Notes under the pieces: model-generated | What the model was told of the DNA's origin: nothing | Database searches by the model: none | What the model saw: only the letters and a program-made list of their open reading frames with translations | Position numbers and translations under genes: made by a program | NCBI GenBank assembly: GCA_964480345.1 | Contig: CAYZNW010000001.1 | Span: forward strand, 82,137-146,136 | Direction: 5' to 3' | Length of the DNA: 64,000 nucleotides | Origin: an uncultured Candidatus Saccharibacteria bacterium | Lineage (GTDB): Bacteria > Patescibacteriota > Dojkabacteria > SC72 | In this document: piece after piece, positions 13,408-57,683 of the stretch | Position numbering within the stretch: position 1 is the stretch's first letter | Layout of the letters: every line of letters starts with the position of its first letter

Positions 13408-13423
13408 ATAAAATGATAATATA

Positions 13424-14086
13424 TTATTCTTCCTTTGTCTCTTCCTGTGCTGCTTCTTCTGTAGCTTCGCCCTCTTGTGCTTCTTCCTCACCCTCTACTG
13501 CTTCCTCTGTAGGTGTGACAATCTTCTCTTCCTCCTGCATTTCTGTAATTGTAACTACAGTTGCATTCTTCATATCTTCATTTACAAAGGAAATACCCTC
13601 TGGAATATTTAAATCTGAAACAGCAATAGTTTGACCTGGATGTTCGAGTGAAGCAATATCTACTTCTATATAAGGGATTAAATCTTTTACTTTACATCTA
13701 ACCTCTATTGATGGCATTACCTCAACAAGTACTCCTAAGTTATTTTTAACTGCAGGAGATACTCCAATGATATTGAAAGGAATGGAGAATACCATCTCTT
13801 TACTTTCATCGATTTCAAAGAATGCAATATGTCGAATTTCTTCTGTAATAGGGTTGAGATCTATCTCTTTTACTACAACTTTTATCTTTTTCTCTCCAAG
13901 CTCGGCATCTAAAATAGTAGTAGAAGTAGCTTCATTTAAGATTCTTTTTGCTAAAGATGAATCTATCATTATATTTGTAGACTCTGTTTTTGAGTTGTAT
14001 ACAACGGCAGGTGTTTTTCCTTCAGCTAGAAGAACTTTTGTCTTTTTAGCTTTTGGATCTCTTTTTTCGAAAGTTACTTTTTCCAT
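13424..14086 (-). CDS. rplY: 50S ribosomal protein L25 / general stress protein Ctc with acidic C-terminal tail
   Basis: KVTFEKRDPKAKKTKVLLAEGKTPAVVYN... is the L25/Ctc N-domain. A beta-barrel second domain follows. The E/A-rich tail is typical of Ctc-form L25. Confidence 0.75.
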   Translation of the reverse strand: MEKVTFEKRDPKAKKTKVLLAEGKTPAVVYNSKTESTNIMIDSSLAKRILNEATSTTILDAELGEKKIKVVVKEIDLNPITEEIRHIAFFEIDESKEMVFSIPFNIIGVSPAVKNNLGVLVEVMPSIEVRCKVKDLIPYIEVDIASLEHPGQTIAVSDLNIPEGISFVNEDMKNATVVTITEMQEEEKIVTPTEEAVEGEEEAQEGEATEEAAQEETKEE

Positions 14087-19869: not shown

Positions 19870-20564
19870 CTAGGCTTGCCTCTAAATAAGCAGAAAGCAT
19901 GAAGTGATACTGATGGTTTGCAGATTCTCTTTATACTTCTCCCAACTGAATTAATTGTATTGCCAGTAGTTATTACATCATCTACAACTACTATATTTTT
20001 GTATCTATTAATCTCATTTATATCCTTTACTGCGAACCTATCCTCAGAAATATTTGCTCTCTGGTCTTTCAAAAGTGATGCTTGATGAATATCTAAGTTA
20101 TTCAAATCTACCAACACATTATTTAAATATTTAAAACCGAATTCTTTAGATAAAATCTCAGCTATCCTCTCAGTCTGATTAAAACCTCTATCTCGTAACC
20201 TCCTTGAAGAGATAGGAGTTGGTAGAACCAATGTATTCTCTAACTCTTTAATATACTTGAAATCTTTTGTAATAGTTGGAATTAAACTCTCTAGCAAGGT
20301 ATTGATATCGTAAACCGCAGAATACTTATATCTCTTCAGAAATATGGAAGAGATATCATTGTACTCCCATGCTACAAATACGGAATCAAACACACTGTTC
20401 TGTTTACAAGTATCATGAGTTTTGTAATGCTGAGATACTTTTCTACAAACATAGCATTCAGGTAGATTCCTTTTAAGAAGTTTTCTACACTCATCACAAA
20501 GATATGTACCAATCTTTCCACAGATAGAACAAGATCGTGGATATAGGATATCTAAAATATTCAT
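19860..20564 (-). CDS. comF: ComF-family phosphoribosyltransferase-domain protein
   Basis: An N-terminal Cys4 zinc ribbon (CSICGKIGTYLCDECRKL...CYVC) and a C-terminal type-I PRTase motif VVVDDVITTGNTINSV. Confidence 0.7.
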   Translation of the reverse strand: MNILDILYPRSCSICGKIGTYLCDECRKLLKRNLPECYVCRKVSQHYKTHDTCKQNSVFDSVFVAWEYNDISSIFLKRYKYSAVYDINTLLESLIPTITKDFKYIKELENTLVLPTPISSRRLRDRGFNQTERIAEILSKEFGFKYLNNVLVDLNNLDIHQASLLKDQRANISEDRFAVKDINEINRYKNIVVVDDVITTGNTINSVGRSIKRICKPSVSLHAFCLFRGKPSYS

Positions 20565-30597: not shown

Positions 30598-32193
30598 ATG
30601 AAGATTAGTTTTAGAAAAGATTTGAATATAGCGACGATAAGGTCTGAATCAGCATGGAATAAATTTAAAATACATACTCTCTTACAGAACGGTGAGAGGA
30701 AACAATCATCTATAAATGCATACCTGGGGGCTATGTATAGTCGTACCTCTGATTCTATATTAGATATTGCTTCTGAGATAGTTATACATAGTAGTAACCT
30801 TACTGAGAAGTTAGAAAAACTTCTATCAGAGTATCGACAAAAAGTTGTTGGAGATATGGCCAATTTATTTGTTTGTATTGAAGATATTCCAATATTGACA
30901 GCTATGAAGATTTTCTATTCCAATTCTTCATTAACTGGACAGGAAAGATCACCAAAATATCAAAGAGTTGATAAGTTTGAGTTTATTAAGATACCTCGAG
31001 AAGTTTGTGACAATACTGATGTCAGAAAAGAGTTTGAAAGGATTATGTTAAAACAGTTAGTTGATTACAAGGAGATGCTAAAACCTACAAGAGAGGAGTT
31101 AGCAAAACATTACTCTATTAATTTAGAGAGTTCTCATGAAAGTGCTTCATTGAAATCTAGAGTGTTTGATGTTGCAGGATATCTTCTTCCTGTAGGTTTA
31201 AATACAAATGTGTCTTACCTAATGTCTGCAAGAGATTGGTCTTCAGAAATATCATATCTGTTAGCAAGTGATTCTGTTGTAGATAATGAATTAGCAGACC
31301 TATTGATTAGCTTACTTGGCGAGGGTCGTTTAGAATTAAAGGGGTATATTAAAGAAGCAGATGGTTTGATAGGAGATGTAGATGCTAATTGTAATAGAAA
31401 GAATTCTACTGAAGAAGTCATTAACTATTTGAAGAAATATATTTCAACAGAACAGGCTAAGGATATTCCTGAGAGAGAGACAGAATCTATTTCCGTGACT
31501 TACTCGCCTGATTGTACTGAGACTTTGATTTCACATTATGAATCTTTAATTAATCCTTTAGGTTCAGCACATGAATTAGAATTTTCAGATGAGGATCAGG
31601 AGTATATTAGTGATATTCTGTTTGAGAGACATGATCATAATAATACGATAGGGAATATGGGGCAGTCTGGTGCTATCAAAATCTCAGGATTTGCATCTTT
31701 AAGGGTATTAAAATACCTAAATAGTTTTAGAAGTTTAGAACGATTTATTCCTTTGTTGCATGATAGTGTCGATATGAATCAAGAGTTAGATCGTAGAAAT
31801 GATCAATGTTTCTATCTTTGTACATATTTAAATATTCCTAGTATGTCTAAATTGAAGAAAGAGTATCAGAAGAGGTTAGAGGAAACATATGAAAGGATTA
31901 AAGCATGGAGAAAGTACGCTATGGATTTTATGTCAGAAGATTTAGTTGATGAATTTACCAAGTATCTTTTACCTCATGCTCACTCTACAAAGTATCTTAT
32001 GTATGGTTCTTTTGATGATCTACAATATTTGATAAATAACGGAATTCGAAATGGAGTACATATTGATTGTAGAGTTCTTCTTTATGAATGGTTACGATTG
32101 CTTTCATTGAAAGATCCTATATGGAGGTCGTTGCTTAAAAAAGTAATTACTCCGAAAGTAGATGATAAGTTTCAGTTTGTAGATAGAAGTTAA
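30598..32193 (+). CDS. Hypothetical 531-aa protein in the folD-glyA-dcd operon, possibly a divergent Thy1/ThyX-like fold
   Basis: Tightly coupled between glyA (13-nt gap) and dcd (20-nt gap). The segment LFVCIEDIPILTAMKIFYSNSSLTGQERSPKYQRV weakly resembles the ThyX block F.IEGVSR....RHR.AS.SQESQRY, but the RHR triad is not conserved. No other recognisable motif. Confidence 0.3.
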   Translation: MKISFRKDLNIATIRSESAWNKFKIHTLLQNGERKQSSINAYLGAMYSRTSDSILDIASEIVIHSSNLTEKLEKLLSEYRQKVVGDMANLFVCIEDIPILTAMKIFYSNSSLTGQERSPKYQRVDKFEFIKIPREVCDNTDVRKEFERIMLKQLVDYKEMLKPTREELAKHYSINLESSHESASLKSRVFDVAGYLLPVGLNTNVSYLMSARDWSSEISYLLASDSVVDNELADLLISLLGEGRLELKGYIKEADGLIGDVDANCNRKNSTEEVINYLKKYISTEQAKDIPERETESISVTYSPDCTETLISHYESLINPLGSAHELEFSDEDQEYISDILFERHDHNNTIGNMGQSGAIKISGFASLRVLKYLNSFRSLERFIPLLHDSVDMNQELDRRNDQCFYLCTYLNIPSMSKLKKEYQKRLEETYERIKAWRKYAMDFMSEDLVDEFTKYLLPHAHSTKYLMYGSFDDLQYLINNGIRNGVHIDCRVLLYEWLRLLSLKDPIWRSLLKKVITPKVDDKFQFVDRS

Positions 32194-32212: not shown

Positions 32213-32794
32213 ATGATACTTTCAGATATTACAATTAAGGAAAAATTAAAGAGTGGGGATATTGTTATAGAGCCTTTCTCTGAAGAGTTTTTGCAACCAG
32301 CTTCGTATGATCTTCATTTGGATAGGTATTTTATGGTGTTTAATAAGGAGAGTGTAGGATTAATAGATGTTAGAAAGAAATGTGAAAATTTAATGAGAGA
32401 GGTAGATATTGGTAAGGGTGGTTCATTTATAATTCATCCAGGAGAGCTTGTTCTTGCAAATGTTCAAGAGATTGTGGGAGTAGGAGATAAATATGTTGGT
32501 AGATTAGAGGGTAAGAGTTCACTTGGTAGGATAGGATTGATAGTTCATGCTACAGCAGGTTTCTTGGATCCAGGTAATAAGTTAAGGATGACTTTGGAGT
32601 TAGCAAATCTTTCTTCGTTACCAATTAAGATATATGAAGGGATGAAGATTTCTCAGATAGCTTTTGAAGAGTTGGATAAGGCTTGTGAGAGACCGTACGG
32701 TAGTAAAAGCTTAAATAGTAAATATATAGGGGATACCAAGGTTAAGGGTAGCCTAATATGGAAGAATTTCTACAAGAAGAAATCTACATCATAG
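32213..32794 (+). CDS. dcd: dCTP deaminase
   Basis: SYDLHLD, IIHPGELVLANVQE and GFLDPGNKLRMTLELAN blocks of Dcd/dUTPase-fold deaminases. Confidence 0.85.
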   Translation: MILSDITIKEKLKSGDIVIEPFSEEFLQPASYDLHLDRYFMVFNKESVGLIDVRKKCENLMREVDIGKGGSFIIHPGELVLANVQEIVGVGDKYVGRLEGKSSLGRIGLIVHATAGFLDPGNKLRMTLELANLSSLPIKIYEGMKISQIAFEELDKACERPYGSKSLNSKYIGDTKVKGSLIWKNFYKKKSTS

Positions 32795-33890
32795 GAGGAA
32801 CTTGTGGAAGTTCACTTGATGGAGTCTCATCTACTTTAGGTTCAATTGTTGGAGTACTTTCTGGTTGAGCAGGGATACTGTTGATTTCTCCATTAACTAA
32901 ATCTTGTAAGTCATTATGTTGTGTACTCTGTTCAGGAATAGTCGTATCTGGTTGTATCAATGTCTCTGTATCTATGTTTTGTGCTGGTACAGTACTCTCT
33001 TGTGGATTTAGGTAGTCAACTGCTACTTGAGGATTTAATCCTGCATCGACAGGAGGTTGGGCAACTTCAGCTGTAGGAGCCTGTTGCTCTTCTAACTTAA
33101 CTTCTTCAACTGGTTGAGTAATAGGTGTTGTTTCTACTACTGGTTCTTGTTGAATAGTTGGAGTTTCTGCAAGAGAAGGAGTTGGTTCAGCCTGTATAGG
33201 TGTATCTACAACAACAGGTTCTGGCATAATTTCTGCAGGTTGAGATACTGCAGGTTGTACTTCTTGAGAAAAGGTTTCTGGCATAACAGGAGCTACTGTA
33301 GCTTCTGCCTGTGGAGAAATTTGTCCTTGTTCTTGATTTACTATTTCAGCTAATGTTGGTTTAGCACCGTTTAAATTATCTTCTTTTGTTTCGTTGGTTA
33401 GATTGGCAGGAATATTGTTCATATTTATACCATCAGGTATTGCTACAGGAGGTGTAGCTTGTTCTGGAGTTACTTGTATAACTTCTTCTGTTCCCTTCTT
33501 CTTGTTACTTAAGAGAATACCGATGATACTAACTAGCAAGATAACTGAACCTGCTATTAATACATATGGTAGATAGTCCATATATGCTGTTGTCTTCTTA
33601 GTTGTAGTAGTGGTTGTTGTCGTAGAGGAAGTTGTTGTTGGTGTCGTAGTAGTGGTAGGTGTTGTCGTAGTCTTTTCTTCATTGGTAGTAGGAGTCTCTG
33701 TTGTAGTATCAGTGGTTTTTGTTGTCGTACTGTCTGTAGTTTTTGTTGTCGTGCTATCTGTAGTTGTTGTAGTATCACTATCTGCAACAGGAGTTGGTGT
33801 ACTTTCTAAGGATGTAGTTTGAGCAGATACAACTAAAGGAAAAGCGAGTAATATACTGAAAATAACAAAGGATTTTAATATTTTTTTCAT
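32784..33890 (-). CDS. Secreted/membrane mucin-like protein: signal peptide, Thr-rich repeat region, TM helix, P/Q/E-rich tail
   Basis: The signal peptide MKKILKSFVIFSILLAFPLVVSA is followed by TTTTDSTTTKTTDSTTTKTTDTTTETPTT...TTTTTTTT. A TM helix (LPYVLIAGSVILLVSIIGILL) comes next, then about 240 aa of low-complexity P/Q/E/T-rich sequence. Confidence 0.5.
   Translation of the reverse strand: MKKILKSFVIFSILLAFPLVVSAQTTSLESTPTPVADSDTTTTTDSTTTKTTDSTTTKTTDTTTETPTTNEEKTTTTPTTTTTPTTTSSTTTTTTTTKKTTAYMDYLPYVLIAGSVILLVSIIGILLSNKKKGTEEVIQVTPEQATPPVAIPDGINMNNIPANLTNETKEDNLNGAKPTLAEIVNQEQGQISPQAEATVAPVMPETFSQEVQPAVSQPAEIMPEPVVVDTPIQAEPTPSLAETPTIQQEPVVETTPITQPVEEVKLEEQQAPTAEVAQPPVDAGLNPQVAVDYLNPQESTVPAQNIDTETLIQPDTTIPEQSTQHNDLQDLVNGEINSIPAQPESTPTIEPKVDETPSSELPQVPPMM
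33608..33821 (-). repeat. Thr-codon low-complexity/tandem repeat tract within the mucin-like gene
   Basis: Runs of gttgttgt/gtcgtag with near-identical ~24-nt units at 33717-33764 (ttttgttgtcgtactgtctgtag / tttttgttgtcgtgctatctgtag) encode TTDSTTTK twice. This is a slippage-prone tract. Confidence 0.5.
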
Positions 33891-34025: not shown

Positions 34026-35246
34026 ATGAATTACCAAGACCTAAATATATTACAAAATGGAATTCCTTCAAATGATGGGGCTACCTCTTCTGTAGACGAA
34101 AATTTAAATGAAATATCTGAATTAGAAAAGAAATTACTAAACTCTTCCTCTCCTGATAGCTTAAAAGAAGAGGCCATGAGATCTATTACTAGATTGAAAA
34201 GAATGGCAAAGATGGGAGGATATAGTAGTGAATTTGAAAATGTTAATAAATATATTGATTGGATAGTAAGAATCCCTTGGGGAGTTATCTCTGATGATAA
34301 CTTGGATATTAACAATGCAAAGGTATTGATGGATAAGAGTCACTACGGAATGAATGATATTAAAGATTTGATTGTGAATTATCTAGCTACTATGCAATTA
34401 GAAAATGTCAAAGGTAATACAATAGGAGTTCAGCCTATGCCTACTCAATTTGGTACTGTATCTTTAGAACCTCAACAAGAAATCCCTGATATGGCTCTCT
34501 TGAAAGGCTCCTCTGCAAATGCTCCTGTTTTACTCTTTGTAGGTTTGCAAGGTGTTGGTAAAACCTCTATTGCAAAATCTATTGCTAATGCAATGAATAG
34601 GAAATTCGTAAGAGTATCCCTTGGTGCTATAGGAGACGTCAGAACTCTTCGTGGTACTCCAAGATATTCTATAGATGGAGAACCAGGTCAGATTATTAAA
34701 GCACTTATTAGATGTGGTACTATGAATCCTGTTATTCTTCTTGATGAGATTGAGAAATCTAGTGGTAACTCAGGGTTAATGAACGATGTTATGGCAACTC
34801 TTCTTGAGATTTTAGATCCAGAACAAAATTCTACCTTTATAGACCACTATATCGATTATCCTGTTGACTTATCTAAAGTATTCTTCATTTGTACAGCTAA
34901 TAATCTTGGTGGTTTGTCTGCTGCTTTACTTGATAGGGTTGAGGTTATTAGGTTTACAAGCTATACCGATGAGGAGAAGGAAGTTATTGCTAAGCAGTAT
35001 ATTCTTCCAAAAGTTTATGAGAATCTACATATATCTTCTGATCATGTAGTTATAGATGATGATGTTTGGCCAAGCTTGATTAGACCGGTTGGTTTTGATG
35101 CTGGTATTCGTCAGCTAGAGAGAAATATTGCAACTATGATGAGAAGTGCTGCAAGAATGATTGTTGAGAAGAGTCCTTTACCTATCAGAATAACTAAAGA
35201 GAATCTAAATCAATTTGTTCTTTCAGATCAAGGTCCTCTAAGCTAA
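34026..35246 (+). CDS. Stand-alone Lon-like AAA+ ATPase module (no LON N-domain, no S16 protease domain)
   Basis: KYIDWIVRIPWGVISDDNLDINNAKVLMDKSHYGMNDIKDLIVNYLA aligns to the Lon linker (YIDWLL.LPW...DL..A...LD.DHYGL..VKERILEYLAV). Walker A is VGLQGVGKTS, Walker B is VILLDEIEK, sensor-1 is TANN, the Arg finger is LLDRVEVIRF, and sensor-2 is GIRQLER. The ORF stops at ...ENLNQFVLSDQGPLS, exactly where the Lon protease domain would begin. Confidence 0.75.
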   Translation: MNYQDLNILQNGIPSNDGATSSVDENLNEISELEKKLLNSSSPDSLKEEAMRSITRLKRMAKMGGYSSEFENVNKYIDWIVRIPWGVISDDNLDINNAKVLMDKSHYGMNDIKDLIVNYLATMQLENVKGNTIGVQPMPTQFGTVSLEPQQEIPDMALLKGSSANAPVLLFVGLQGVGKTSIAKSIANAMNRKFVRVSLGAIGDVRTLRGTPRYSIDGEPGQIIKALIRCGTMNPVILLDEIEKSSGNSGLMNDVMATLLEILDPEQNSTFIDHYIDYPVDLSKVFFICTANNLGGLSAALLDRVEVIRFTSYTDEEKEVIAKQYILPKVYENLHISSDHVVIDDDVWPSLIRPVGFDAGIRQLERNIATMMRSAARMIVEKSPLPIRITKENLNQFVLSDQGPLS

Positions 35247-35485
35247 TATCCTTTGAATGGGTTCGAAAGTCTCAGAGCAGAAACTGCTACTTTAATCTGT
35301 GGCTCTTTTATTCCTTTTGCAATATTAGCCTTATACATACTTTTATCTTCTGCTTTCTGTAGAAGATTTAAATCATCTTTTTTCTCTTCAGTAGATATAG
35401 TGCTAGTATCAATTGCTTGTGTAACTAAGTAGTTTTCCTCTTTTATTGTATTTTTAATATCTTGGTTGTTGTTCATTCTCTTCAC
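35243..35485 (-). CDS. Small hypothetical protein (80 aa) at the distal end of the VirB4-like operon
   Basis: An ORF overlapping the 3' end of the VirB4-like gene by 32 nt. No TM helix and no motif, so it may be spurious. Confidence 0.2.
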   Translation of the reverse strand: MKRMNNNQDIKNTIKEENYLVTQAIDTSTISTEEKKDDLNLLQKAEDKSMYKANIAKGIKEPQIKVAVSALRLSNPFKGY

Positions 35486-37943
35486 CTGGATAACTTTCTA
35501 TAATTCCTTGAGGAGTTAGATGGGATTTACCTTTTTGAGTTTTCATCCTGTCTGCAATAACTTGTCCAGACAATGTTTTCTCTTCTATGTTCTGTACAAA
35601 GCCTTTCTGACTTTCATATTTCTGAGGATTTAATTGCATCTCTTGTTGTCTTAATCTTTCTTCTAGCTCTTTTTGATACTGTACTCTTTCTTCCTCTAAG
35701 AACGATTTCTGAGTTTCTTTTCTTTGTAAAGCTTCTTGAATTATTTCATCTTGTCTTCCTATCTTTCCGTCTCTCATAGGTCTCTGTTGTGCTGGTGTAT
35801 CATAGATTTGTGCGAGTTCTTCTAAAGTTCTTGTATCTTCCTGCCCAGCTCTTTCAGCAAGTTTCTCTAAATCTCTAGGATCGGAGGTGATTAACTCGTG
35901 CTCTGATTGACTAGAAAGTACCTCTATACCTACATGGTTTGAACCTGCAAAGAATAGTCCTTGTCCTTTATCACAGTTCAGTAGGAAATTCTTCTCTCCG
36001 TCTGAGAGGTTAAATACTTCTTGTAATTTGTCTGCTGCAGTAGGACTTTGCATCATGAGCATTTGAAGAGAAGAGTTTGAGATGATAGCTTTACCCATAT
36101 CGTTATTTAAGAAGTCATTAACATCTTGTGTAATTGTAGAGAGTCCAAGGTAGTATTTTCTTGCCCTTTTTGCAATTGAGTACATGAACTTTGCTGAGTC
36201 AGCTGATTGCATCATATACCATGCTTCATCCACTACCAGTATTCTTCTCTTTCGATCTTTTCTAACTTTTGTCCAAATGAAGTCCAACATTAAGTACATT
36301 GCTAACGGTTTTAATTCTTCTTGTAAGTCTCTAATACTAAATACGGTCATCGGATTGTTGATTTCAAAGTTACTAGCTTCATTAAAAACACCTGCACCAC
36401 TACCTATGATATATTTTTCTAATCTTCTTGCTAAGCTATGTGCTTCAGGCTCTGCCATTCCTTTTAATACTTTGTACAAATCTTCCAGTAGAGGAGGTTG
36501 TTTAGTTTGTGAGGCAGGATCATATGTTATTCCTTTTTCTCGGTAGGTTAATACTAGTGCTCTGTCTAGAATAGAGCCTTCCAAGCTGGTTAAATCTTGA
36601 TAGAGTACTTTGAAGAAGCCCTGTAAGGAGAGTAATTTCATCCTTAGTTCATCATCTCCCTCTTCTGTAGCTCCTGCTAATTCAAATGGATTCATCTTGT
36701 TTCCTTTATCTTGTGAGAAAGAGATATATGCTCCATTCACAGCTGAGGATAGATTCTCATACTCTCTTTCTGGGTCAATGATGATAATTTCGGTACCAAG
36801 CATTAAGCTTCTAACGGCTTCTAATTTAACAAAATAGCTCTTACCAGCTCCTGATTTTGCAAATACTACAGTGTTGGCATTCTCTAATTCAAATCTGTCG
36901 AATATGATTAAACTCTTATTATGCATATTTAATCCATACATAATTCCGTGATCCATAGTTAACTCTGATGTTACAAAAGGAAATGTAGTGGCCAGAGAGG
37001 TAGTATCCATATTTCTAGTGATATACAGGTTGTCTATTCCTAGAGGTTGAGTACCTATAAAGCCTTGTTCCTGTTGTAAAGTCGCTGATTTTGCTGTCAC
37101 ATTAATTGCTGCTAGGGTGGATGTTACATTCCTAGCAATTTTTTCAAGTTCGTCTTTTGATTTTGCATACATTGTTATATACATTGTGAAGTGGAAGAAT
37201 TTCTCGGTACCCTCTGCTATGGAGTCTTGTAACTGTTGTGCATCAGAAAGTGCAACTTTCAATGAAGGATCTACGACTTTTCTCTCTTCCATTTGTGTGT
37301 ACAGAGTTGCTTCCATTTCTCCAATTTTCTTTTTAAGCTTGTCTAAGATGGTTTTAGAATCTACAGGGTAGTAGAAAGTACTTATTCTAAGAGAGTGTTC
37401 GAAGTTAATGATAGGGGAAAGCCAGTTAGGTCCTACAAATCTAGGATATCCACTAACAAAAAGTGTCTTAAAGTAATACTCTCCCATTTGCAAATGGTTG
37501 AAATCTATCTCTAGATCCATAGGGGCTATCATATCTTGTGTTGATATATTGCTGTTTTCATCTAATGCTGATGATGGAGTGAAAGAGGGATCTTCATTAA
37601 CTATTTCTTTGACCTCTTCTTTTTCTTCTCCGTTTTTACTTGTTTCTTCTTGTACTTTATTGTTTTTGTTTACCTTCTCCGCTATTGAATCAAGTAGCTT
37701 AATGAGGATGTTTTTCTTCTTTTTTGGTTTTTCATCATCTTCCTTTAGAGGATCAAAGTATCTGTTCCTACTATCATTTGGATCTTTACTCTCTTGAATC
37801 TTTCTCATTTCACTATCTACAGATTCTCTGAATTGAGCATATTTTTGGCTATCTGTTTTCAAAAGATTACTCTGCTCGCGCATTGTCTTAGCGGAGTTAT
37901 TTTCAAATGTTCGGTTGTAGTTATTTTTACTTAAATCTTCCAT
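35454..37943 (-). CDS. VirB4/TrbE/TraC-family type IV secretion ATPase (AAA_10-like)
   Basis: Walker A is VVFAKSGAGKSYFVK. Walker B is RRILVVDEAWYMM, carrying the DEAW hallmark of VirB4/TraC. An upstream block MDLEIDFNHLQMGEYYFKTLFVSGYPRFVGPNWLSPIINFEHSLRISTFYYPVD resembles the VirB4 N-domain. The N-terminal ~130 aa is K/E-rich and disordered. Confidence 0.65.
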   Translation of the reverse strand: MEDLSKNNYNRTFENNSAKTMREQSNLLKTDSQKYAQFRESVDSEMRKIQESKDPNDSRNRYFDPLKEDDEKPKKKKNILIKLLDSIAEKVNKNNKVQEETSKNGEEKEEVKEIVNEDPSFTPSSALDENSNISTQDMIAPMDLEIDFNHLQMGEYYFKTLFVSGYPRFVGPNWLSPIINFEHSLRISTFYYPVDSKTILDKLKKKIGEMEATLYTQMEERKVVDPSLKVALSDAQQLQDSIAEGTEKFFHFTMYITMYAKSKDELEKIARNVTSTLAAINVTAKSATLQQEQGFIGTQPLGIDNLYITRNMDTTSLATTFPFVTSELTMDHGIMYGLNMHNKSLIIFDRFELENANTVVFAKSGAGKSYFVKLEAVRSLMLGTEIIIIDPEREYENLSSAVNGAYISFSQDKGNKMNPFELAGATEEGDDELRMKLLSLQGFFKVLYQDLTSLEGSILDRALVLTYREKGITYDPASQTKQPPLLEDLYKVLKGMAEPEAHSLARRLEKYIIGSGAGVFNEASNFEINNPMTVFSIRDLQEELKPLAMYLMLDFIWTKVRKDRKRRILVVDEAWYMMQSADSAKFMYSIAKRARKYYLGLSTITQDVNDFLNNDMGKAIISNSSLQMLMMQSPTAADKLQEVFNLSDGEKNFLLNCDKGQGLFFAGSNHVGIEVLSSQSEHELITSDPRDLEKLAERAGQEDTRTLEELAQIYDTPAQQRPMRDGKIGRQDEIIQEALQRKETQKSFLEEERVQYQKELEERLRQQEMQLNPQKYESQKGFVQNIEEKTLSGQVIADRMKTQKGKSHLTPQGIIESYPGEENEQQPRY

Positions 37944-37945
37944 TT

Positions 37946-38581
37946 TTACTCTTCATCTGGGTTATATATTGTGTAAAACTCAGAAATTAACTCCTTATTG
38001 GTTAGTTGATGGCCAAACAATCCCATACGACTCAATTGTTTAAGAATATGATCTCTCTTAGGATAGAGGAATATCTTAGCTTTTTCCAGGAGCTGTCCTA
38101 CTTCCATTTCTTTTACTTTCTCTTCTTCTCCTTTTGCTTTTTTAGATTTGAATATTGATACATTAGGTAATTGTCCTAATGGGTAATATGGAATTACTAT
38201 GAAGAAGCTCTTGTCTAATACATCGTTCTGAACAATTAGATTTTGTACAAATTTAGAATATATTTCTAATTGTTTTTTCAAACCTTCACTCATCTCTCTT
38301 TCTTTCTGATTGTTTAAATAGTCTATGTAGTTGCTGATATCTACTCTTTTTGTTCTTATGAGGATTTGTATTCTAAAGTTTAATGAATTCAGTAATCCTG
38401 CAAAGGCATAAATTTTGTTGTCTTGCTCGTATTCTGCTAAAAGTTCAAAGTTAATTGAAGATGTTTGTATAACCATCGATACACTTCCATTTTTATTTAT
38501 TACCAAGTCATCTGCTATTTCCTTGATGGCTAAGTGTTCTTGTGTTGATGCTGTTGCTCTTGCACGAGCATTTTTATCCAT
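37946..38581 (-). CDS. Hypothetical soluble protein translationally coupled between PrgI-like and VirB4-like genes (possible detached VirB4 N-terminal-like domain)
   Basis: Has 2-nt gaps to both neighbours and no TM helix. The segment HLAIKEIADDLVINKNGSVSMVIQTSSINFELLAEYEQD...FAGLLNSLNFRIQIL is reminiscent of the N-terminal region of Gram-positive VirB4 homologues. This is an inference from memory of those families. Confidence 0.35.
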   Translation of the reverse strand: MDKNARARATASTQEHLAIKEIADDLVINKNGSVSMVIQTSSINFELLAEYEQDNKIYAFAGLLNSLNFRIQILIRTKRVDISNYIDYLNNQKEREMSEGLKKQLEIYSKFVQNLIVQNDVLDKSFFIVIPYYPLGQLPNVSIFKSKKAKGEEEKVKEMEVGQLLEKAKIFLYPKRDHILKQLSRMGLFGHQLTNKELISEFYTIYNPDEE

Positions 38582-38583
38582 AT

Positions 38584-39411
38584 TTATACTGCATTAATCT
38601 TAATTGGTAATCTATTATTTATGTTATCCATCATTATTTCAACTGATGGAAAAGTATATTGTGGATGTTGAAATGTTAATGAATAATTACCTTTCTCCCA
38701 TATTTGATTTGTTAAGAAATATCCATTTGGACCTGTTTTATTTGCATAAAGGATTTTACCTTCAGAATTTCTTAAGTAAGAAATCACATTAGGTATAGGT
38801 TTATAATCAGGTGTACAAAGCCAACAATTAATATTTCCAGGTAAATCTTCCATACCTTTTGTAGAAAATTGATAGTTAGAGATATTCTCATCCGTTATTA
38901 TTAATTTCAGTGGATCTATTTGTTGTACTTTCTCATCAGTATTTGTTTCTAGAATATCCATTTCATCTTTCTCATCCTCTTGCGTATCTTCTTTTTTTAA
39001 TGAATCTAAACTAATACCTATGATTTTTTTCTTCTCTTTTTTCTGATCTTTGTGTATTAAGGTTCCATCTTCTGCTGGTTTAATTAAAGGTTTAGTTCTT
39101 TCCTCTTTCATCTCTTTGTTTAACCAAGTTCGCTGAGTAGGGTTGTTAATAGCGGCGATGTAACTTTGAATAAATTTGTCTGCATCTTGATCATTGATTG
39201 GTACAAGTCCAAGTATGATTCCTAATGATGAGCTGACAATACAAACTGGGATTCCAAGTAATGCAGGGATTATATTTGAGACGACTAAATATATCATTAA
39301 ACCACCGAAACCAACCCCTACTGCTAGGTATGCGAATTCCTTTAATGTGAATTTAGTGAATAACTTAAATTCTACATCTAAAACATTTTGTGGTATTGCA
39401 TGTTGTCTCAT
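38584..39411 (-). CDS. PrgI/VirB3-like small membrane protein with a ~150-aa C-terminal extension
   Basis: The N-terminus FKLFTKFTLKEFAYLAVGVGFGGLMIYLV plus a second TM helix matches the PrgI-family (VirB3-like) layout found immediately upstream of VirB4 genes. The C-terminal extension is K/E/D-rich and ends in a CWLC-containing domain. Confidence 0.45.
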   Translation of the reverse strand: MRQHAIPQNVLDVEFKLFTKFTLKEFAYLAVGVGFGGLMIYLVVSNIIPALLGIPVCIVSSSLGIILGLVPINDQDADKFIQSYIAAINNPTQRTWLNKEMKEERTKPLIKPAEDGTLIHKDQKKEKKKIIGISLDSLKKEDTQEDEKDEMDILETNTDEKVQQIDPLKLIITDENISNYQFSTKGMEDLPGNINCWLCTPDYKPIPNVISYLRNSEGKILYANKTGPNGYFLTNQIWEKGNYSLTFQHPQYTFPSVEIMMDNINNRLPIKINAV

Positions 39412-39511
39412 ATAGGCAGATTCTACTAAAGTTTAGCAGAATATTAAAGAAAAGAGTACAGGTATATACATAGATAAAACCATTCTATGTTATGTAGTAT
39501 ATAATGTAATT

Positions 39512-45095: not shown

Positions 45096-45492
45096 AAAAA
45101 TTTTTATAATCACAGGTGTTTTTTCAGTAGTCGTGATAGTTCTATCATCGATTCTTCTTCTGTCAAAAGAGGTTGGAAGTTTTAATCCGTTCTCTTCTAA
45201 TAGTAGTTGTACTCCGTATAATGTTTTTGTATCAAAAGGGGAGGTTGAGTACTCTGCACAGATAGAGTGGTATACAAAAGGGAAATGTATAGGTTTTGTT
45301 CGGTATGGAAAAGATATTAGCAAGATGGAAAATGTGTCATTGGATTCACTTGGAGGTTCTAGAGAAAATTTCCATAAAGTGGTTATTGAGAAGCTTGTTA
45401 GTTCAGAAAGATATTACTATCTAATTACATCTGGAGATCAGAGCTACGGAAGTAATGGTGCTCCACTTCAATTTACTTTAGACAATCTTTAA
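45076..45492 (+). CDS. Hypothetical membrane-anchored secreted protein
   Basis: An N-terminal TM anchor and a beta-rich ectodomain. Overlaps the previous gene by 20 nt. Confidence 0.35.
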   Translation: MFWKMNRKIFIITGVFSVVVIVLSSILLLSKEVGSFNPFSSNSSCTPYNVFVSKGEVEYSAQIEWYTKGKCIGFVRYGKDISKMENVSLDSLGGSRENFHKVVIEKLVSSERYYYLITSGDQSYGSNGAPLQFTLDNL

Positions 45493-47270
45493 TTTCTTTT
45501 TGAGACTTTCTTAATTGTTTTCTTTTCGAAATATTTCTTTGGTTCGAATACTTTAAGAGATGCCATTTCAGCTTCTTTGTATACTCCAGAGTCAGTTAAT
45601 TTCTTTGCAACAACTCGACCAAAAGGTCTGTTATGTATATACCATCCAATTAGTACTATTGCTAAACCTATGATTATTCTAGCTATTGTAGAATCAAATA
45701 TTCCTGTCTGAGGCTGTTGAGAAGGAGTAGTAGGAGTGGTAGTTGGAGTTGTTGGAATAACTGCATTTGGATTTGTACAATCTTGTGCTACTTGTATTGT
45801 GTACTCTGCTCGAAGTTGTGTAGGATCTGTAGGTATTTGTGCTGGTGTAATGACTACTTCATTCTGGTTATTACCTGTGATAGCATTTGCTCCAGCTTCT
45901 GTAGTAAATGATATTATTAATGTTTGTAGAGGAGATATTGACCAACCTTCTGTTTTTGACCACACTAATTCTTTAGTGTCTCCAATGGTTGTTTGTTTGA
46001 GGTAATCGTTATCTTTTACTACTACACCATTTATCTTTGAGCTCTCTGCTATGTATGTAAATCCTAGTGGTAATTTATCTTTGATTGAGTTTACTACCTG
46101 TGCAGCTTTACTGTTGTTTTGTACTGTTATTGAAACTACTACTTTATTGGTAGGTGCTACTCTTTCTACACATGTTAGATTTCCATCTGCAGTAACTTTG
46201 AAGTTGGATTCTTCTTCTCCTGTTTGTACAGGTGTTGTTGACGCAACAGTGTATGTAACGGTTTTAGTAGTTTCTCCAATTGTTGTACTATCTGTAGCAT
46301 TGTTTAATTTCATAGCTATTCCGACCTCTCCTTCATAACCATCTAGTTGGGAGAAGGTAACTCCATCTGCAAAATTAGATGGATTGTAAAGCTCTTGACC
46401 GAGTATAGAGATCTCTCCTTTTGCTGAGTCAAGGACGAATCCTTTCTGCATAGTTATATTTTGGTGTCTCTTTGTATCAAAAGAGAAGAGTAGTTCTAAT
46501 TTAGTTCCTTCTGCAATGTTACCTACACTAATATTCATTCCAGAAAGTCTAAATTTACCATCTGTAGTAGAGGTGGTAATCATTAGATTATTAACACTAG
46601 AGGAAGAGGTTTGTTCGACATCTACTAACCTACGACATATTGGAGAGTTTATGGTATCTCCTGTGGGTGTAGTAGCAGTAGCCATTATATTTAGAGAAGT
46701 CTTAGTGAATTTGGATAGCTCTTTTTTTACTGTTAGTTTATCTGCAGAAACAGTATCAGGCTGTTCCGGTTCGTTATTTACAATTATTTGATGATTTGTA
46801 TACTCTTTATCAAACTTTGCTTCTATTGTAATTACATCGTCAGGAGATATTTTGCCTGTAACTATTTTTCCATCTTCATCTTTTATTGTCATTTCATAAC
46901 ATCTTGTATCTTGAATATTGTCTAATTGGCAAGATTTGTATAGGTTCTGTTGAGTATCACTGTTTAAAAGGTTTGTAGTTATGGAGCTAGGAGGACATGA
47001 TGCTTGGCATGTATCTCCAGAACTAGACTTGGCAATGTTAAAGATGAAGCCTCGTCTAGGGTCTCCGCATTCTGATATAACTGCAGGGTCTATGAAATAG
47101 CAAGCACATGTTTTCTCAGTTGTTTTTCTATCCTCATCACTATCTTTAATTAGATAGAAGTAAACAGCTACAGCTATGAGTGCAAGCCCTAATATTCCAA
47201 TGAAAATTAACAAAATGGTAGTAATTCTTTTTGGTTTTTTAACTGTGGTTACTCTTCTAGTTTCTTCCAT
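45489..47270 (-). CDS. Large surface protein with N-terminal anchor, Cys-containing ectodomain, Thr/Pro linker and C-terminal PQTG-hydrophobic-basic segment
   Basis: The N-terminal TM helix is ITTILLIFIGILGLALIAVAVYFYLI. The C-terminus reads TTPTTTPTTPSQQPQTG-IFDSTIARIIIGLAIVLIGWYI-HNRPFGRVVAKK..., which resembles a sortase sorting signal (motif, hydrophobic helix, basic tail) with a longer tail. Confidence 0.45.
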   Translation of the reverse strand: MEETRRVTTVKKPKRITTILLIFIGILGLALIAVAVYFYLIKDSDEDRKTTEKTCACYFIDPAVISECGDPRRGFIFNIAKSSSGDTCQASCPPSSITTNLLNSDTQQNLYKSCQLDNIQDTRCYEMTIKDEDGKIVTGKISPDDVITIEAKFDKEYTNHQIIVNNEPEQPDTVSADKLTVKKELSKFTKTSLNIMATATTPTGDTINSPICRRLVDVEQTSSSSVNNLMITTSTTDGKFRLSGMNISVGNIAEGTKLELLFSFDTKRHQNITMQKGFVLDSAKGEISILGQELYNPSNFADGVTFSQLDGYEGEVGIAMKLNNATDSTTIGETTKTVTYTVASTTPVQTGEEESNFKVTADGNLTCVERVAPTNKVVVSITVQNNSKAAQVVNSIKDKLPLGFTYIAESSKINGVVVKDNDYLKQTTIGDTKELVWSKTEGWSISPLQTLIISFTTEAGANAITGNNQNEVVITPAQIPTDPTQLRAEYTIQVAQDCTNPNAVIPTTPTTTPTTPSQQPQTGIFDSTIARIIIGLAIVLIGWYIHNRPFGRVVAKKLTDSGVYKEAEMASLKVFEPKKYFEKKTIKKVSKRN

Positions 47271-53035: not shown

Positions 53036-55480
53036 TTATTCCTCTGTTTTCTGTATTTGTTCGAAGATTTTTTGAAGATCAGATGCTTCTGGGGCTTCTG
53101 GCTCTGGAATTACAGTTGGTTCCAATGGTGGAGTTATACTTTGTTGAGGGGTTATTTCTAGCGTTTTCTCTTCTGAGCTGGTAGCTGTAATTTCAGGTTC
53201 TATCTCTTTCTTTTCTTCTTCTGGTATGGATATTTCATATTTTCTTAATGCTTCCTCTTGCTCTATTGGTGTGGTAGTTATTTCTTCTGGTTGTTTCTCT
53301 GGCTCTTCATGAACTGTTATGGAGATAGGGGGTTCTTGAGGAGTAGGTACAGGAGCTTCATATTTTATTTCCTCTACTTTAGGTTCTTCTTGTAATAGAG
53401 TAATCTCTTCTTCTTGTTTTGTTTCTTCTTTTGGAGTAGGGAATTCTGTTTTTTGCTCATGATTAATCTGAATAGATACAGGTGGTTCTACTTTTTTCTC
53501 TTCATTTATATTTACTTCTACTTTTGGTATTTGAATTTCTTTTTCAGGCTCTTGTAGAACTGGAAGAGCAATTTCAACTTCTTCTTTAACTGGAGTCTCT
53601 TCCTCTTGTTTGATTTCTATTTTAGTAGGCTCTTCTATCTCAATCTTTATATCTTGTTCTTTTCTCTCTTCTTCAGGTTCTGGCTTTGGAGCTACATAGT
53701 TATCCCATACATCTTTTTTCTCTTCCTCTTTTGTAATTACAATCTCTGGCTCTTTCTCAACCATACTCTTAACCTCTTCATTTACCTCTATATTTGTTCC
53801 ATACATCCCATTTCCAAATGGCAAGGAAGAGGGTAGGTGTCTATTTGAAACATATACACTCTCTTCTTTAACTTTACTATTTTCTTTCCATATGGAAGAA
53901 ATGAGAAATGGAGCAAGTATTGCAGCTGCTATTATTAATATCCCTACCACTATGATGATTAGCGTTCTCTTAGATATTTGGAGTCCAAAGACAGATACTG
54001 TACCTGTATCTTCATCATCTTGTGAAGAGATTGCAAATGTCCATGATTTAGTAGCACTTTTACTGGCACTGTCTTGGAAAGATATTTCAGCTTTATGCTC
54101 ACCTGCTTTAAAGTTCTCTTCTGGTTGATACAGTAATGTATATTCACTGTTACTTACCTTGTTAATCTTTACAGATTTTGTAACATCTTTGTCATCTATC
54201 TTGAAAAGGATAGATGATTCATTTATCTCGGATTTAATGCTAGCTATGATTGTAGCTTTTACAGTAACTCTCTTGTTAGTTATCTTATCTGTATTTGAAG
54301 GAGACATATTTGTAACTTGTGGCTCTCCTAAGAATATCTGGTCATCAGTTTCGCTATCTTGAGTACCTCCTCCTCTTGAAAGAACTATTTCAGGAGATAT
54401 TGCCATACCTGTATTTGCAGGCTTTTGGTTATCTGTAGCTCTAACTATTAAGTTATATGTTCCTGCAGGTATATTTGAGGTGTTTACATTGTAACTATTC
54501 ATATTGTATGGAATAGCGTTTTCTACAGTCAACCAGGTTGATTCATCTGTAGGATTTGGTGCCATGAATAGCTGGTACTTTATGATGTGATTGAGATCTG
54601 CTGCCTGCCAACTAGTTCTAAATGAAGTTCCTAGATCTAGCCTTAAACTTTCTGATGGCTGAATTATTTTTACAATTGGAATATCATTTGTCGCTGGACT
54701 TACACTAATTACCCAAGATTGTGATCTGACATGCTTACTATATCCATCATGTATCACTACATTTGCTAAGTAGCTTGCTGGTTTAGTTGTTGATCCTTTA
54801 AATATCAAAGTTAATTTTCCATTAGAACCATCTTCAACAACTGATTTTGTAAGCCAGTCAGCTTTTGGAGTAAATGAATATGAGTAGTTAATTCTATCTG
54901 TATCAACATCATTTGCTGTTAGTACATATTCATACTGTGTGCCTGTTTTGATATCTTGTGATGGTTTTGATTGAGATGGATCTGATTGAAACTCAGGAGA
55001 ACTATTATTTTGTACTGCTCTCAATCCTTTTATATCATAAGGGCTACTTATCTTACATCCAACACTGCCTCCTCCAACTTTTCTGACAACACCAAGCATA
55101 TCAATCATCCCTGACTTTGATGGGGTGAATTGGAATGATGTCCCTATATCAGTAGGAGCAGTATCGTAACTTTCTGTAAATATATTTGTACCTGAAGAAT
55201 CTGTAATGAGTAGTGATTCTATACCTGCATTACTTAATCTCGCATCTACAGTAACTCTAATTGTTTCTCCGACTTCCAATGAGTATGGATTTACATTCGG
55301 AACAGAAATGATACATGGATTTTGTTCACTAAGTTCTAATTCGTCAAAAGCTCTATTTCTTGTATCAAAAGAATTCTTTACTAATCCTAATACTATTAAT
55401 GGAAGAGAAAGAAGTAAGAAGAAAGTTACCTTTATTACAAAACTTTGATTAGATTTTTTCGGGGCGTATCTTCTTGGCAT
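53036..55480 (-). CDS. Large envelope protein: N-terminal anchor, multiple Ig-like/He_PIG domains, internal TM, E/P/K-rich repetitive tail
   Basis: TM helices near aa 20 and aa 515 (LIIIVVGILIIAAAILAPFLI). The ectodomain contains YEYVLTANDVDTDRINYSYSF (He_PIG-like). The last ~270 aa are PEPE/EEK/IEIK low-complexity repeats. Confidence 0.45.
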   Translation of the reverse strand: MPRRYAPKKSNQSFVIKVTFFLLLSLPLIVLGLVKNSFDTRNRAFDELELSEQNPCIISVPNVNPYSLEVGETIRVTVDARLSNAGIESLLITDSSGTNIFTESYDTAPTDIGTSFQFTPSKSGMIDMLGVVRKVGGGSVGCKISSPYDIKGLRAVQNNSSPEFQSDPSQSKPSQDIKTGTQYEYVLTANDVDTDRINYSYSFTPKADWLTKSVVEDGSNGKLTLIFKGSTTKPASYLANVVIHDGYSKHVRSQSWVISVSPATNDIPIVKIIQPSESLRLDLGTSFRTSWQAADLNHIIKYQLFMAPNPTDESTWLTVENAIPYNMNSYNVNTSNIPAGTYNLIVRATDNQKPANTGMAISPEIVLSRGGGTQDSETDDQIFLGEPQVTNMSPSNTDKITNKRVTVKATIIASIKSEINESSILFKIDDKDVTKSVKINKVSNSEYTLLYQPEENFKAGEHKAEISFQDSASKSATKSWTFAISSQDDEDTGTVSVFGLQISKRTLIIIVVGILIIAAAILAPFLISSIWKENSKVKEESVYVSNRHLPSSLPFGNGMYGTNIEVNEEVKSMVEKEPEIVITKEEEKKDVWDNYVAPKPEPEEERKEQDIKIEIEEPTKIEIKQEEETPVKEEVEIALPVLQEPEKEIQIPKVEVNINEEKKVEPPVSIQINHEQKTEFPTPKEETKQEEEITLLQEEPKVEEIKYEAPVPTPQEPPISITVHEEPEKQPEEITTTPIEQEEALRKYEISIPEEEKKEIEPEITATSSEEKTLEITPQQSITPPLEPTVIPEPEAPEASDLQKIFEQIQKTEE

Positions 55481-56888: not shown

Positions 56889-57683
56889 TTAAATTTTTCT
56901 TTCAGCAACAACTATTAACCTCTTCGTCCCTATACCTAAAGGCCAACAGGTCATTAGAGTTACAGTTTCTTTATTTAACCTAGGTTGTAATACTGAGAAA
57001 TCTTCTGGTGAGACTATCTTTTTATTTCGTACTACATATTCTAAGTTTTCATCATCTCTATTTATCATAATTTCTTGACCAATATCAATATTGTCTAGTC
57101 TTGAGAAGATAGTTTCGGGATAGTCTTTGTGCCTACTGAAGAAGGATTCTACTGCACTATGTCCATATATAAATGAGTTACCTCCATCTCCTGGTAGAGG
57201 AGTACCTTTGAAATGTGCGACTCCACCTTTTAAATATGCATTGTATACTTTCTCATCATCACTTTCTACATTTGATGAGATTTTAATATTTTTAATTCCA
57301 ATGCTAGCAATATTTATGAACATATCTTTTTTGTATGCTTGGTCAATTGTGATGTTGCTTGCGCTTTGAGCATTTGATGCTGTGTTTGTTGTAGAGGCTC
57401 CAAGTATTCCAAATTGTTTAGATAAATTAGCGAAGTAGCTTTGTCCTGGATCATAGAATGCAAACTCATTTTCAATGTATGTTTTGTATGTTTCTGGAAC
57501 TGGCTCTACCTTAATATCTACTCGTTTTTGAGCAATCACTCCATCTATATATGATTTAAGAAGAGGTAAAGCTTGGCTTGCGATAACTACTAATCCTAGT
57601 ATTGCAAGGACAAAAGAAAGGATTATCCTTGTCCTTTGTATTTTCTTTGTATTTTCAGTTTGTATATTCCAAGAGTTCTCCAT
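56889..57683 (-). CDS. Sortase-family transpeptidase
   Basis: An N-terminal TM anchor. Catalytic His in FIYGHSA, Cys in TLMTCWP and Arg in KRLIVVAER. Confidence 0.8.
   Translation of the reverse strand: MENSWNIQTENTKKIQRTRIILSFVLAILGLVVIASQALPLLKSYIDGVIAQKRVDIKVEPVPETYKTYIENEFAFYDPGQSYFANLSKQFGILGASTTNTASNAQSASNITIDQAYKKDMFINIASIGIKNIKISSNVESDDEKVYNAYLKGGVAHFKGTPLPGDGGNSFIYGHSAVESFFSRHKDYPETIFSRLDNIDIGQEIMINRDDENLEYVVRNKKIVSPEDFSVLQPRLNKETVTLMTCWPLGIGTKRLIVVAERKI

Follow-up and report, generated by a model that had tools for sequence, protein, structure and literature searches.

The question raised by this locus is whether a compact block of conjugation-type genes is what remains of a mobile element or a working part of a secretion-like machine. 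The block consists of four tightly packed open reading frames (ORFs) on the minus strand (35243-39411) of the window, that is, the whole 64-kb stretch of contig CAYZNW010000001.1 that was analyzed. A first-pass annotation of this DNA had read them as genes for a PrgI/VirB3-like protein, a soluble 211-aa protein, a VirB4 ATPase and an 80-aa product, packed with 2-nt gaps or overlaps, and had suggested a reduced secretion or uptake apparatus of the kind suspected in episymbiotic small-genome bacteria. Coordinates and junctions were confirmed, and we give a probability of about 85% to the reading that the operon of four genes encodes the membrane-anchored motor of the Patescibacteria type IV secretion system (T4SS)-like machine, here in Dojkabacteria. 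The earlier suggestion was essentially right, and the system is already published (PMC12102498, PMC10633639, PMC12857230); the locus represents the motor core of that system, which is real and not new. Small additions that are worth noting are the tiling of a split VirB4 by two genes, a beta-sandwich domain attached to PrgI and a conserved small protein.

The 829-aa product scored above the cut-off of the NCBIfam CD1110 equivalog model (NF045971, 403.8 bits, cut-off 325), matched Pfam P-loop_TraG (E 7.8e-26) and, over residues 352-686, the C-terminal domain of VirB4 in the PDB (4AG5, E 7.7e-48), which upheld its initial description as a VirB4 ATPase with a DEAW motif. Both Walker A (GAGKS, G365-S369) and Walker B (DEAW, D572-W575) were conserved in 75-76 of 76 VirB4 homologs. 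A total of 7,800 VirB4 relatives were detected at E<=1e-10; the 120 best were at least 67% identical, with all named ones coming from Dojkabacteria or WS6, and the best plasmid-borne VirB4 was no more than 38% identical. The first gene codes for a 275-aa protein, residues 6-91 of which matched PrgI (PF12666, 31 bits, cut-off 27, E 3.8e-7, profile positions 2-86 of 91), in accordance with the PrgI/VirB3-like identity proposed before; its relatives are named 'PrgI family protein' by NCBI. It has the two-helix hairpin of this family, hydrophobic and strongly conserved among homologs, and its gene lies two genes upstream of virB4 in 70 of 80 loci, although the protein itself is not small owing to an added C-terminal domain. 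The nearest named relatives of VirB4, of PrgI and of the 211-aa protein (TrsD-like, hereafter TrsD) belonged to Candidatus Dojkabacteria/candidate division WS6, a Patescibacteria class, consistent with the small-genome lineage that had been surmised.

By scanning one genome per species we obtained 80 related loci with VirB4 58-79% identical, nearly all of which were titled Dojkabacteria or WS6 or carried a generic metagenome-assembled genome label. Searches of these loci with the window proteins (tblastn) detected VirB4 in all 80 and TrsD in 77; 70 had PrgI, for the most part in full length, and 54 had the small ORF. PrgI homologs were always located directly upstream of TrsD (70 of 80 loci), and the small ORF was each time directly 3' of virB4. 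The cassette and approximately 20 kb of housekeeping neighbors had the same order across species-level genomes: hyp182, hyp186, LepA, RecF, (a nucleotidyltransferase), PrgI, TrsD, VirB4, the small ORF, (a convergent Lon-like AAA gene), a Thr/Pro-rich membrane protein, dCTP deaminase and ThyX. In one locus (L068) the surrounding order was broken, and PrgI, TrsD, VirB4 and the small ORF were still found together, beside HrcA-GrpE-DnaK. Because they were kept together despite the broken neighbor order, the four genes form a conserved unit; conservation of the cassette in related genomes, a point raised by the first-pass annotation, thus extends even to a rearranged locus. In all four genes the proportion of nonsynonymous differences (pN) was far below that of synonymous differences (pS), a sign of purifying selection, which, together with the essentially invariant Walker motifs, argues that the genes are functional. 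Since synteny with housekeeping neighbors is shared across genomes with this range of VirB4 identity, the four-gene unit is, judged from sequence comparison, chromosomal and vertically inherited and not a fragment of an integrative and conjugative element (ICE). The GC content of the cassette (0.30-0.35) was inside the range of the remaining window (0.30-0.38), and a location of this kind, with conserved housekeeping synteny and ordinary GC, is not that of a mobile element.

No transmembrane (TM) segment was predicted in TrsD, as expected from its earlier description as soluble. It matched the NCBIfam TrsD/TraD model (NF041427) over residues 11-99 (E 5.1e-8) and positions 100-232 of the mycoplasma VirB4 model (VirB4_plasma, E 2.5e-7), and its precomputed Pfam family was PF26593 ('TraC-like'). 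It belongs to the wider TrsD-like/'TraC-like' PF26593 group and not to the staphylococcal/enterococcal subfamily. In a survey of Patescibacteria, TrsD is described as a remote homolog of the VirB4 N-terminus with no assigned function (PMC12102498). A full-sensitivity profile search yielded 1,982 TrsD-like clusters, in which the domain was nearly always N-terminal. In one sequence of the representative library (P0462, 787 aa), the TrsD-like domain runs on into a VirB4 P-loop domain. Residues 10-207 of the window TrsD aligned to residues 7-199 of this fusion (41% identity, E 9e-48) and residues 139-713 of the window VirB4 to its residues 213-786 (57% identity), with a junction of approximately 13 residues in the fusion. 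Taken together, TrsD and VirB4 of the window thus cover a single protein whose length is usual for VirB4. Full-length VirB4 models were tiled as well. The VirB4 core alone begins at position 189 of 752 in CD1110, 297 of 894 in mycoplasma VirB4 and 237 of 792 in TIGR00929; once TrsD is placed in front of the core, the coverage becomes 2-734, 100-893 and 6-729, respectively. Judging by the CD1110 and TIGR00929 starts, VirB4 does not contain a complete N-terminal domain in its own polypeptide, and a separate homolog of the VirB4 N-terminus is encoded directly upstream of the short virB4. In a conjugative plasmid of Clostridium perfringens, VirB4 is a single 783-aa chain and the window match begins approximately 209 codons in; the VirB4 of a Pontibacillus replicon has 621 aa and comes after a TrsD-like protein of 274 aa (hhalign probability 99.5%). 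When a structural model of TrsD was compared with the PDB by Foldseek, the ten best matches were all TrwK/VirB4, none of them significant (E 0.07-0.4).

The first-pass annotation had noted the resemblance of the 211-aa protein to a VirB4 N-terminal region, which was supported both by the mycoplasma VirB4 match and by the tiling of P0462, and had offered gene fission or domain duplication as the cause. Duplication of the N-terminal domain that VirB4 has kept (residues 120-352) was rejected, as hhalign gave a probability of 0.08% against the TrsD alignment. Because TrsD shows no likeness to the kept domain and tiles both P0462 and full-length VirB4 models, a split VirB4 provides the better explanation: TrsD is best taken as the detached N-terminal module (approximately 190 residues) of VirB4, related by remote homology, with gene fission favored over duplication. 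This reading clarifies a protein that was recorded in the literature without an assigned function, and it gives a model of a PrgI-TrsD-VirB4 ATPase complex. The Dojkabacteria TrsD, with 211 aa, is the bare domain, and many other representatives of the TrsD family (P0473, P0394, P0455, P0413, P0397 and others) are extended at the C-terminus by 200-500 aa that match no Pfam family.

VirB4 begins with a polar region that had been described as a K/E-rich disordered insert of approximately 130 aa. Its N-terminal position and polar composition (64-70% polar residues) were confirmed; however, it is a leader (residues 1-135) at the break point of the split and not an internal insert, and VirB4 has a polar tail of approximately 140 aa in addition. 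The leader had a mean identity of 25% among homologs versus 85% in the adjoining domain. In 76 of 77 loci its frame ran on for 90 codons or more without a stop, and none of 2,000 shuffles remained open. Neither the fusion P0462 nor the plasmid VirB4s, which match from query residue ~131-139 onward, contain it. The retained part of the N-terminal domain (85% mean identity over 75 homologs) had weak Pfam matches to TraC_F_IV and CagE_TrbE_VirB and is equivalent to the CD1110 model from position 189 onward. At the other end of the protein, the tail had a mean identity of 46% with its length kept among homologs, and was outside the coverage of every VirB4 model and plasmid match.

The PrgI-like protein does have an unusual C-terminal extension as first noticed, but this is approximately 185 aa long rather than 150 aa and is partly folded. 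Beyond the hairpin, a conserved basic motif is followed by a variable acidic linker and then by a beta-sandwich that was kept across Dojkabacteria homologs. With the AlphaFold2 (AF2) model of this domain as a query, Foldseek detected 13 matches in the PDB at E<=1e-3, including the transthyretin-like domain of carboxypeptidase N/D, CnaB, SdrD B and the BOS complex (NOMO); weak Pfam matches were to NOMO1-like and SdrD_B. Since a K/R-rich segment follows the second of the two TM helices, the positive-inside rule suggests that the C-terminal part of PrgI is probably cytoplasmic.

The last ORF of the cassette proved to be a real gene, as shown by its presence in 54 of 80 related loci, its conserved motifs (YLVT, KAE and a C-terminal NPFKG, all of which persist in deeper relatives) and its coding substitution pattern, with differences by codon position in the order 3>1>2 and pN of 0.25-0.33 versus pS of 0.5-0.8. 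An independent gene caller, applied to a separate assembly, took the 77-aa form, whose ATG (35476) is preceded by a purine-rich stretch, and this start is more likely than the GTG. No match to the small protein was found in Pfam, NCBIfam or PDB sequences, either with the single sequence or with a profile. Coordinates of the four genes and of their parts are listed in the table.

Table. Features of the four-gene cassette and its upstream region (window coordinates)
Feature	Position	Strand	Basis or remark
PrgI/VirB3-like membrane protein, 275 aa, operon gene 1	38584-39411	-	Pfam PF12666 and synteny
Two-helix TM hairpin of PrgI-like protein, aa 23-69	39205-39345	-	AF2 helices 23-44 and 50-69, predicted local distance difference test (pLDDT) 70-86
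C-terminal beta-sandwich of PrgI-like protein, aa ~165-275, transthyretin/CnaB/carboxypeptidase-regulatory-like fold	38587-38919	-	AF2 pLDDT ~90
TrsD-like protein, 211 aa, operon gene 2	37946-38581	-	NCBIfam, PF26593, colinearity with fusion P0462
VirB4-type ATPase, 829 aa (CD1110/MPF-FATA type), operon gene 3	35454-37943	-	NCBIfam, Pfam, PDB
Polar, fast-evolving N-terminal leader of VirB4, aa 1-135	37539-37943	-	
Retained part of VirB4 N-terminal domain, aa 136-350	36894-37538	-	
VirB4 C-terminal ATPase domain, aa 351-690	35874-36893	-	Walker A 36837-36851, Walker B (DEAW) 36219-36230
Polar E/Q/K-rich C-terminal tail of VirB4, aa 691-829	35457-35873	-	composition
Conserved small soluble protein, 80 aa from GTG or 77 aa from ATG 35476, last operon gene	35243-35485	-	
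Divergent intergenic region upstream of PrgI-like gene, 100 bp	39412-39511		only gap able to hold an operon promoter

The junctions within the cassette are 2 nt, 2 nt and then a 32-nt overlap of the small ORF with virB4 (23 nt with the ATG start), a spacing that suggests co-transcription and translational coupling of the four genes. A terminator scan found no minus-strand terminator-like site inside the cassette. The intergenic region upstream contained two minus-strand promoter-like matches (39510-39482 and 39447-39420); such matches were rarer than in shuffles (12 vs 20.3), so the scan says little on operon structure. At its other end, the small ORF and the convergent Lon-like AAA+ ATPase gene (34026-35246, plus strand) share 4 nt at their stops; the 406-aa product of the latter has an AAA domain and a Lon lid without the protease domain. 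This gene was considered as a further part of the module in view of its adjacency in 72 of 80 loci; being on the opposite strand and not beside the cassette in L068, it was classed as a neighbor. Likewise, a ~2-kb insertion after virB4 in two deeper relatives was examined as a possible T4SS gene and proved to be an ABC exporter of ~610 aa, located between the small ORF and the Lon-like gene (L067 12710-14530, L070 12750-14594).

Pfam scans for other T4SS parts covered every window ORF of at least 100 aa except 4226-7606, 7590-11477, 11502-11921 and 11948-12418. No VirD4, VirB6/TrbL, VirB8, VirB11, relaxase, T4SS pilin or wall hydrolase was detected in the scanned ORFs, which held housekeeping genes only. 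A permissive rescan (E<=1) of nine unannotated window proteins revealed no T4SS part, and phmmer searches of the window with the pilins, VirB6 and hydrolase of Pontibacillus, the relaxase of C. perfringens, CD1115 VirD4, SLT and others gave no match. The absence of VirD4, VirB6, VirB8, VirB11 and relaxase from the 64 kb, reported by the first-pass annotation, was thus borne out with the four ORFs set aside, and neither a relaxase nor a VirD4/TcpA coupling protein, which define a conjugative T4SS, is present within the window. The sole FtsK-like protein (1672-3930) is a true FtsK rather than a coupling protein, as it combines the alpha and gamma domains of FtsK with a 4TM region. An ORF at 63338-63730 (plus strand) was considered as a pilin in view of its three hydrophobic stretches, but with 130 aa, a V/L/M-rich composition and a GTG start it looks like a non-coding artefact. 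In one deep relative (L074, positions 64-797 of the locus, minus strand), two tandem T4SS-pilin-like ORFs of 117 and 129 aa with a GNPE motif were observed approximately 8 kb from virB4; jackhmmer with these two ORFs found no counterpart in the window or in other related loci. Given that channel parts were not found in the 64 kb or, in most related loci, within 10 kb of virB4, a complete secretion apparatus is not demonstrated for the genome. The term 'minimal' used at first applies to this locus alone; the survey places most VirD4 homologs of Patescibacteria far from virB4 (PMC12102498).

These features can be compared with those of Patescibacteria systems described previously. In the survey, 3,035 genomes were searched, Dojkabacteria included, and VirB4 was found in 2,417 of them; Dojkabacteria genomes of the dataset were scored as VirB4-positive, and the Patescibacteria VirB4s form mostly one monophyletic clade nested in MPF-FATA (PMC12102498). 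TrsD is the commonest partner there (1,664 copies next to virB4), VirB3/PrgI is often adjacent, genes for the type IV coupling protein (VirD4) are mostly far from virB4, relaxases are rare and the location is chromosomal. VirB2-like pilins were reported in 1,948 Patescibacteria assemblies. VirB6 homologs are scarce or absent in some classes, which is attributed to extreme sequence divergence, and T4SS genes are often dispersed (PMC12102498). The window locus shares with this clade a chromosomal location, a VirB4 of MPF-FATA ancestry, VirB3/PrgI and TrsD beside virB4, the lack of a relaxase or a nearby coupling protein and a small-genome lineage. In contrast, the Saccharibacteria cluster has a VirB2-like pilin array, VirB6 and a peptidase/lysozyme next to virB4, none of which occur there in the window locus, where the small protein is the sole companion of the motor core. 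The PrgI beta-sandwich, the 77-80-aa gene and the 135-aa VirB4 leader are specific to this lineage and are not mentioned in the available text of PMC12102498 and PMC10633639. A 2025 review treats the Patescibacteria systems as established newcomers to the T4SS superfamily (PMC12857230).

Several more distant systems share parts of this layout. In the Trs system of pGO1/pSK41 and the Tra system of pIP501 of Gram-positive cocci, the VirB3-like protein, TrsD and VirB4 are separate consecutive products, as in the window. The gene order on plasmids of the pGO1/pSK41/pIP501 type is TrsC-TrsD-TrsE, and TrsC is listed as the VirB3 homolog of the Trs system. However, these systems are plasmid-borne and conjugative and include a relaxase, a coupling protein of the VirD4 type, a hydrolase resembling VirB1 and proteins resembling VirB8, and the window TrsD is a distant relative of their TrsD, outside the subfamily. 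The C. perfringens plasmid pSXP-169_2 has a VirB4 of the CD1110 family, the best curated model for the window ATPase, with PrgI directly upstream of virB4; the two VirB4s are ~31% identical over residues 133-668 of the window protein. This plasmid differs in that its VirB4 is in one piece, its PrgI has 126 aa without an extra domain, and MobC, relaxase, VirD4 and an SLT hydrolase are encoded alongside. The Pontibacillus sp. ALD_SL1 megaplasmid (NZ_CP062975.1) has the split layout, with a 116-aa PrgI/TraL-like protein encoded along with the TrsD-like protein and VirB4 mentioned above, VirB4 being 37% identical to that of the window, and no relaxase within 9 kb. It differs in its Bacillota host, in having two T4SS pilins, a TrbL/VirB6-like protein and an M23 plus NlpC/P60 hydrolase in the cluster, and in having neither VirB4 leader, PrgI beta-sandwich nor small downstream protein. 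The Pontibacillus cluster, Patescibacteria-like in its layout, occupies positions 4468-14021 of the locus, with flagellar genes alongside, and its pilins belong to PF18895. VirB2-like pilins are said not to occur in Gram-positive T4SSs other than those of Patescibacteria. The TrwM (VirB3)/TrwK (VirB4) complex of R388 (PDB 7O41, 8RTB, 8RTD) offers a mechanistic model in which VirB3 lies on the VirB4 N-terminal domain at the membrane; R388 differs in being a diderm MPF-T system with a single-chain VirB4, and no sequence-level match to TrwK was found in the PDB search.

By analogy with VirB3/VirB4 of other T4SSs, PrgI may serve as a VirB3/PrgI-like two-helix anchor that holds a TrsD-VirB4 ATPase oligomer at the membrane. 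TrsD would supply the N-terminal module of VirB4, and VirB4 the remaining N-terminal domain and the Walker A/B ATPase, with the small 77-80-aa protein as a putative conserved accessory part. ATP hydrolysis could then power either the building of a channel or pilus whose genes lie elsewhere or transport through it. In view of the Saccharibacteria work, the machine may serve an epibiotic lifestyle by macromolecule import or export at host contact, and not conjugation. In this work, transposon sequencing (Tn-seq) by Wang et al. (2023) showed that the T4SS cluster of S. epibionticum (SEML1_0006-0019), which has no recognizable coupling or relaxase proteins, is essential for epibiotic growth (PMC10633639). 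Few machines have been shown to be essential for the epibiotic way of life of the abundant, for the most part uncultured Patescibacteria, and their T4SS is one of them; the locus provides a compact example of its conserved motor core in Dojkabacteria, a class barely discussed in the published survey.

Several observations weigh against assigning the operon to this machine. No VirB6, VirB8, pilin, hydrolase or coupling protein is present in the 64 kb or, in most related loci, within 10 kb of virB4. The TrsD match of 33 bits is far under the subfamily cut-off of 200 of NF041427, joining TrsD to the VirB4 core adds few bits (+3 for CD1110, +24 for VirB4_plasma and +6 for TIGR00929), and the AF2 model of TrsD is of low confidence (pLDDT 62). 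In addition, the TrsD profile did not detect the N-terminus of the unsplit 783-aa C. perfringens VirB4 in hhalign, a weak negative given the low diversity of both alignments (effective number of sequences, Neff, 1.5-2). For the functional role, the extrapolation starts from a single Tn-seq study in Saccharibacteria, and co-transcription is read from gene spacing only.

The cassette could instead be a decayed ICE or plasmid remnant of Gram-positive type, in which only VirB3, TrsD and VirB4 survive and have no current function. The nearest curated model is indeed that of a conjugal-transfer ATPase family, the plasmid relatives are located in full conjugative sets with relaxase and VirD4, and the window holds only the ATPase core. 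However, the housekeeping synteny across divergent genomes, the low pN in all four genes and the essentially invariant Walker motifs are not those of a decaying remnant, no integrase, relaxase or repeat boundaries were found in the window, whose GC is ordinary, and VirB4 occurs as a monophyletic clade in most Patescibacteria genomes of the survey; we regard this explanation as largely refuted and its chance as very slight. A motor separated from its channel is improbable too. In such a case the Dojkabacteria VirB3/split-VirB4 motor would have been freed from the T4SS and would serve a different envelope machine or stand alone as a membrane ATPase, as might be suggested by the conservation of only four genes as a unit, by the lack of any other T4SS gene nearby and by lineage-specific additions (the PrgI beta-sandwich, the small protein and the long disordered VirB4 termini) that could be new adaptor parts. 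An absence over 64 kb is nevertheless a weak argument when Patescibacteria T4SS genes are often dispersed and VirB6 is reported as scarce or absent in some classes, an effect ascribed to extreme sequence divergence, and an alternative partner has no positive evidence. In its extreme form, Dojkabacteria would run a truly minimal motor consisting only of a VirB3 to which a beta-sandwich is tethered, a VirB4 in two pieces and an adaptor of 80 aa, with no VirB6, pilin or coupling protein, re-plugged into another envelope machine or an unrecognized channel. We consider this a long shot; if true, the VirB4 split and the 135-aa disordered leader would be a regulatory or assembly feature and not an accident of gene structure.

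Two further proposals concern what the motor of the Patescibacteria machine would be used for. Export of effector proteins to the host cell or assembly of VirB2-type attachment pili is a tentative reading, to which we give somewhat less than even odds. Wang et al. suggested that the Saccharibacteria system exports proteins or has another role, and they found its pilin array to be essential (PMC10633639), VirB2-like pilins are widespread in Patescibacteria assemblies, and T4SS pilins were detected near virB4 in L074 and in the Pontibacillus locus; on the other hand, no pilin, VirB6 or effector candidate was present in the window or within 10 kb of virB4 in other Dojkabacteria loci. DNA uptake, with the motor acting as in the T4SS-derived importers ComB of H. 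pylori and Ced of archaea and supplying host DNA or nucleotides, is given only slightly lower odds. The survey authors, Quinonero-Coronel et al. (2025), concluded that the system is repurposed, possibly importing DNA or other macromolecules (PMC12102498), and in a 2026 preprint a monophyletic VirB4 is connected with the transfer of macromolecules in a parasite that feeds on RNA. The window VirB4 has a weak likeness to the DNA-import ATPases CedB (63 bits) and CedD (18 bits), and the window contains no relaxase or coupling protein and, 15 kb from the cassette, a ComFC-like gene. However, the CedB score is against a cut-off of 700 bits and is what any VirB4 would give, and partner proteins of the Ced or ComB kind were not detected. 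In S. epibionticum the competence gene comEC is dispensable while the T4SS is essential (PMC12857230), which neither supports nor excludes import by the T4SS. Sequence does not reveal the direction of transport or the substrate, be it DNA/RNA import or protein export.

Additional observations were made on other genes of the window. Neither dnaA nor dnaN was seen in it, and recF is two genes from the cassette. Just past the Lon-like gene, a 368-aa protein (32784-33890, minus strand) starts with a signal-like sequence, continues with a long low-complexity region rich in Thr and a TM segment, and ends in a tail rich in Pro, Glu and Gln; its conservation is poor, with detection in 21 of 80 loci. 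The ThyX-like protein (30598-32193, plus strand, 531 aa) has the Thy1 domain only at residues 64-216, and its gene adjoins dCTP deaminase in 43 of 80 loci. The ComFC-like gene (19860-20564, minus strand), which codes for a double zinc ribbon and a phosphoribosyltransferase domain, adjoins a gene for a 782-aa protein (17521-19869, plus strand) with approximately 12 TM segments and a C-terminal TPR region, for which no family match above threshold was found. An 814-aa protein (53036-55480, minus strand) with no confident family has an N-terminal TM segment, weak Ig-like matches, another TM segment (residues ~507-525) and a tail of ~290 aa rich in E/K/P. Finally, a 593-aa surface-type protein (45489-47270, minus strand) has PQTG ahead of a TM segment and a basic tail at its end, an arrangement that resembles a sortase sorting signal, and a sortase gene (56889-57683, minus strand) is located 10 kb from it.

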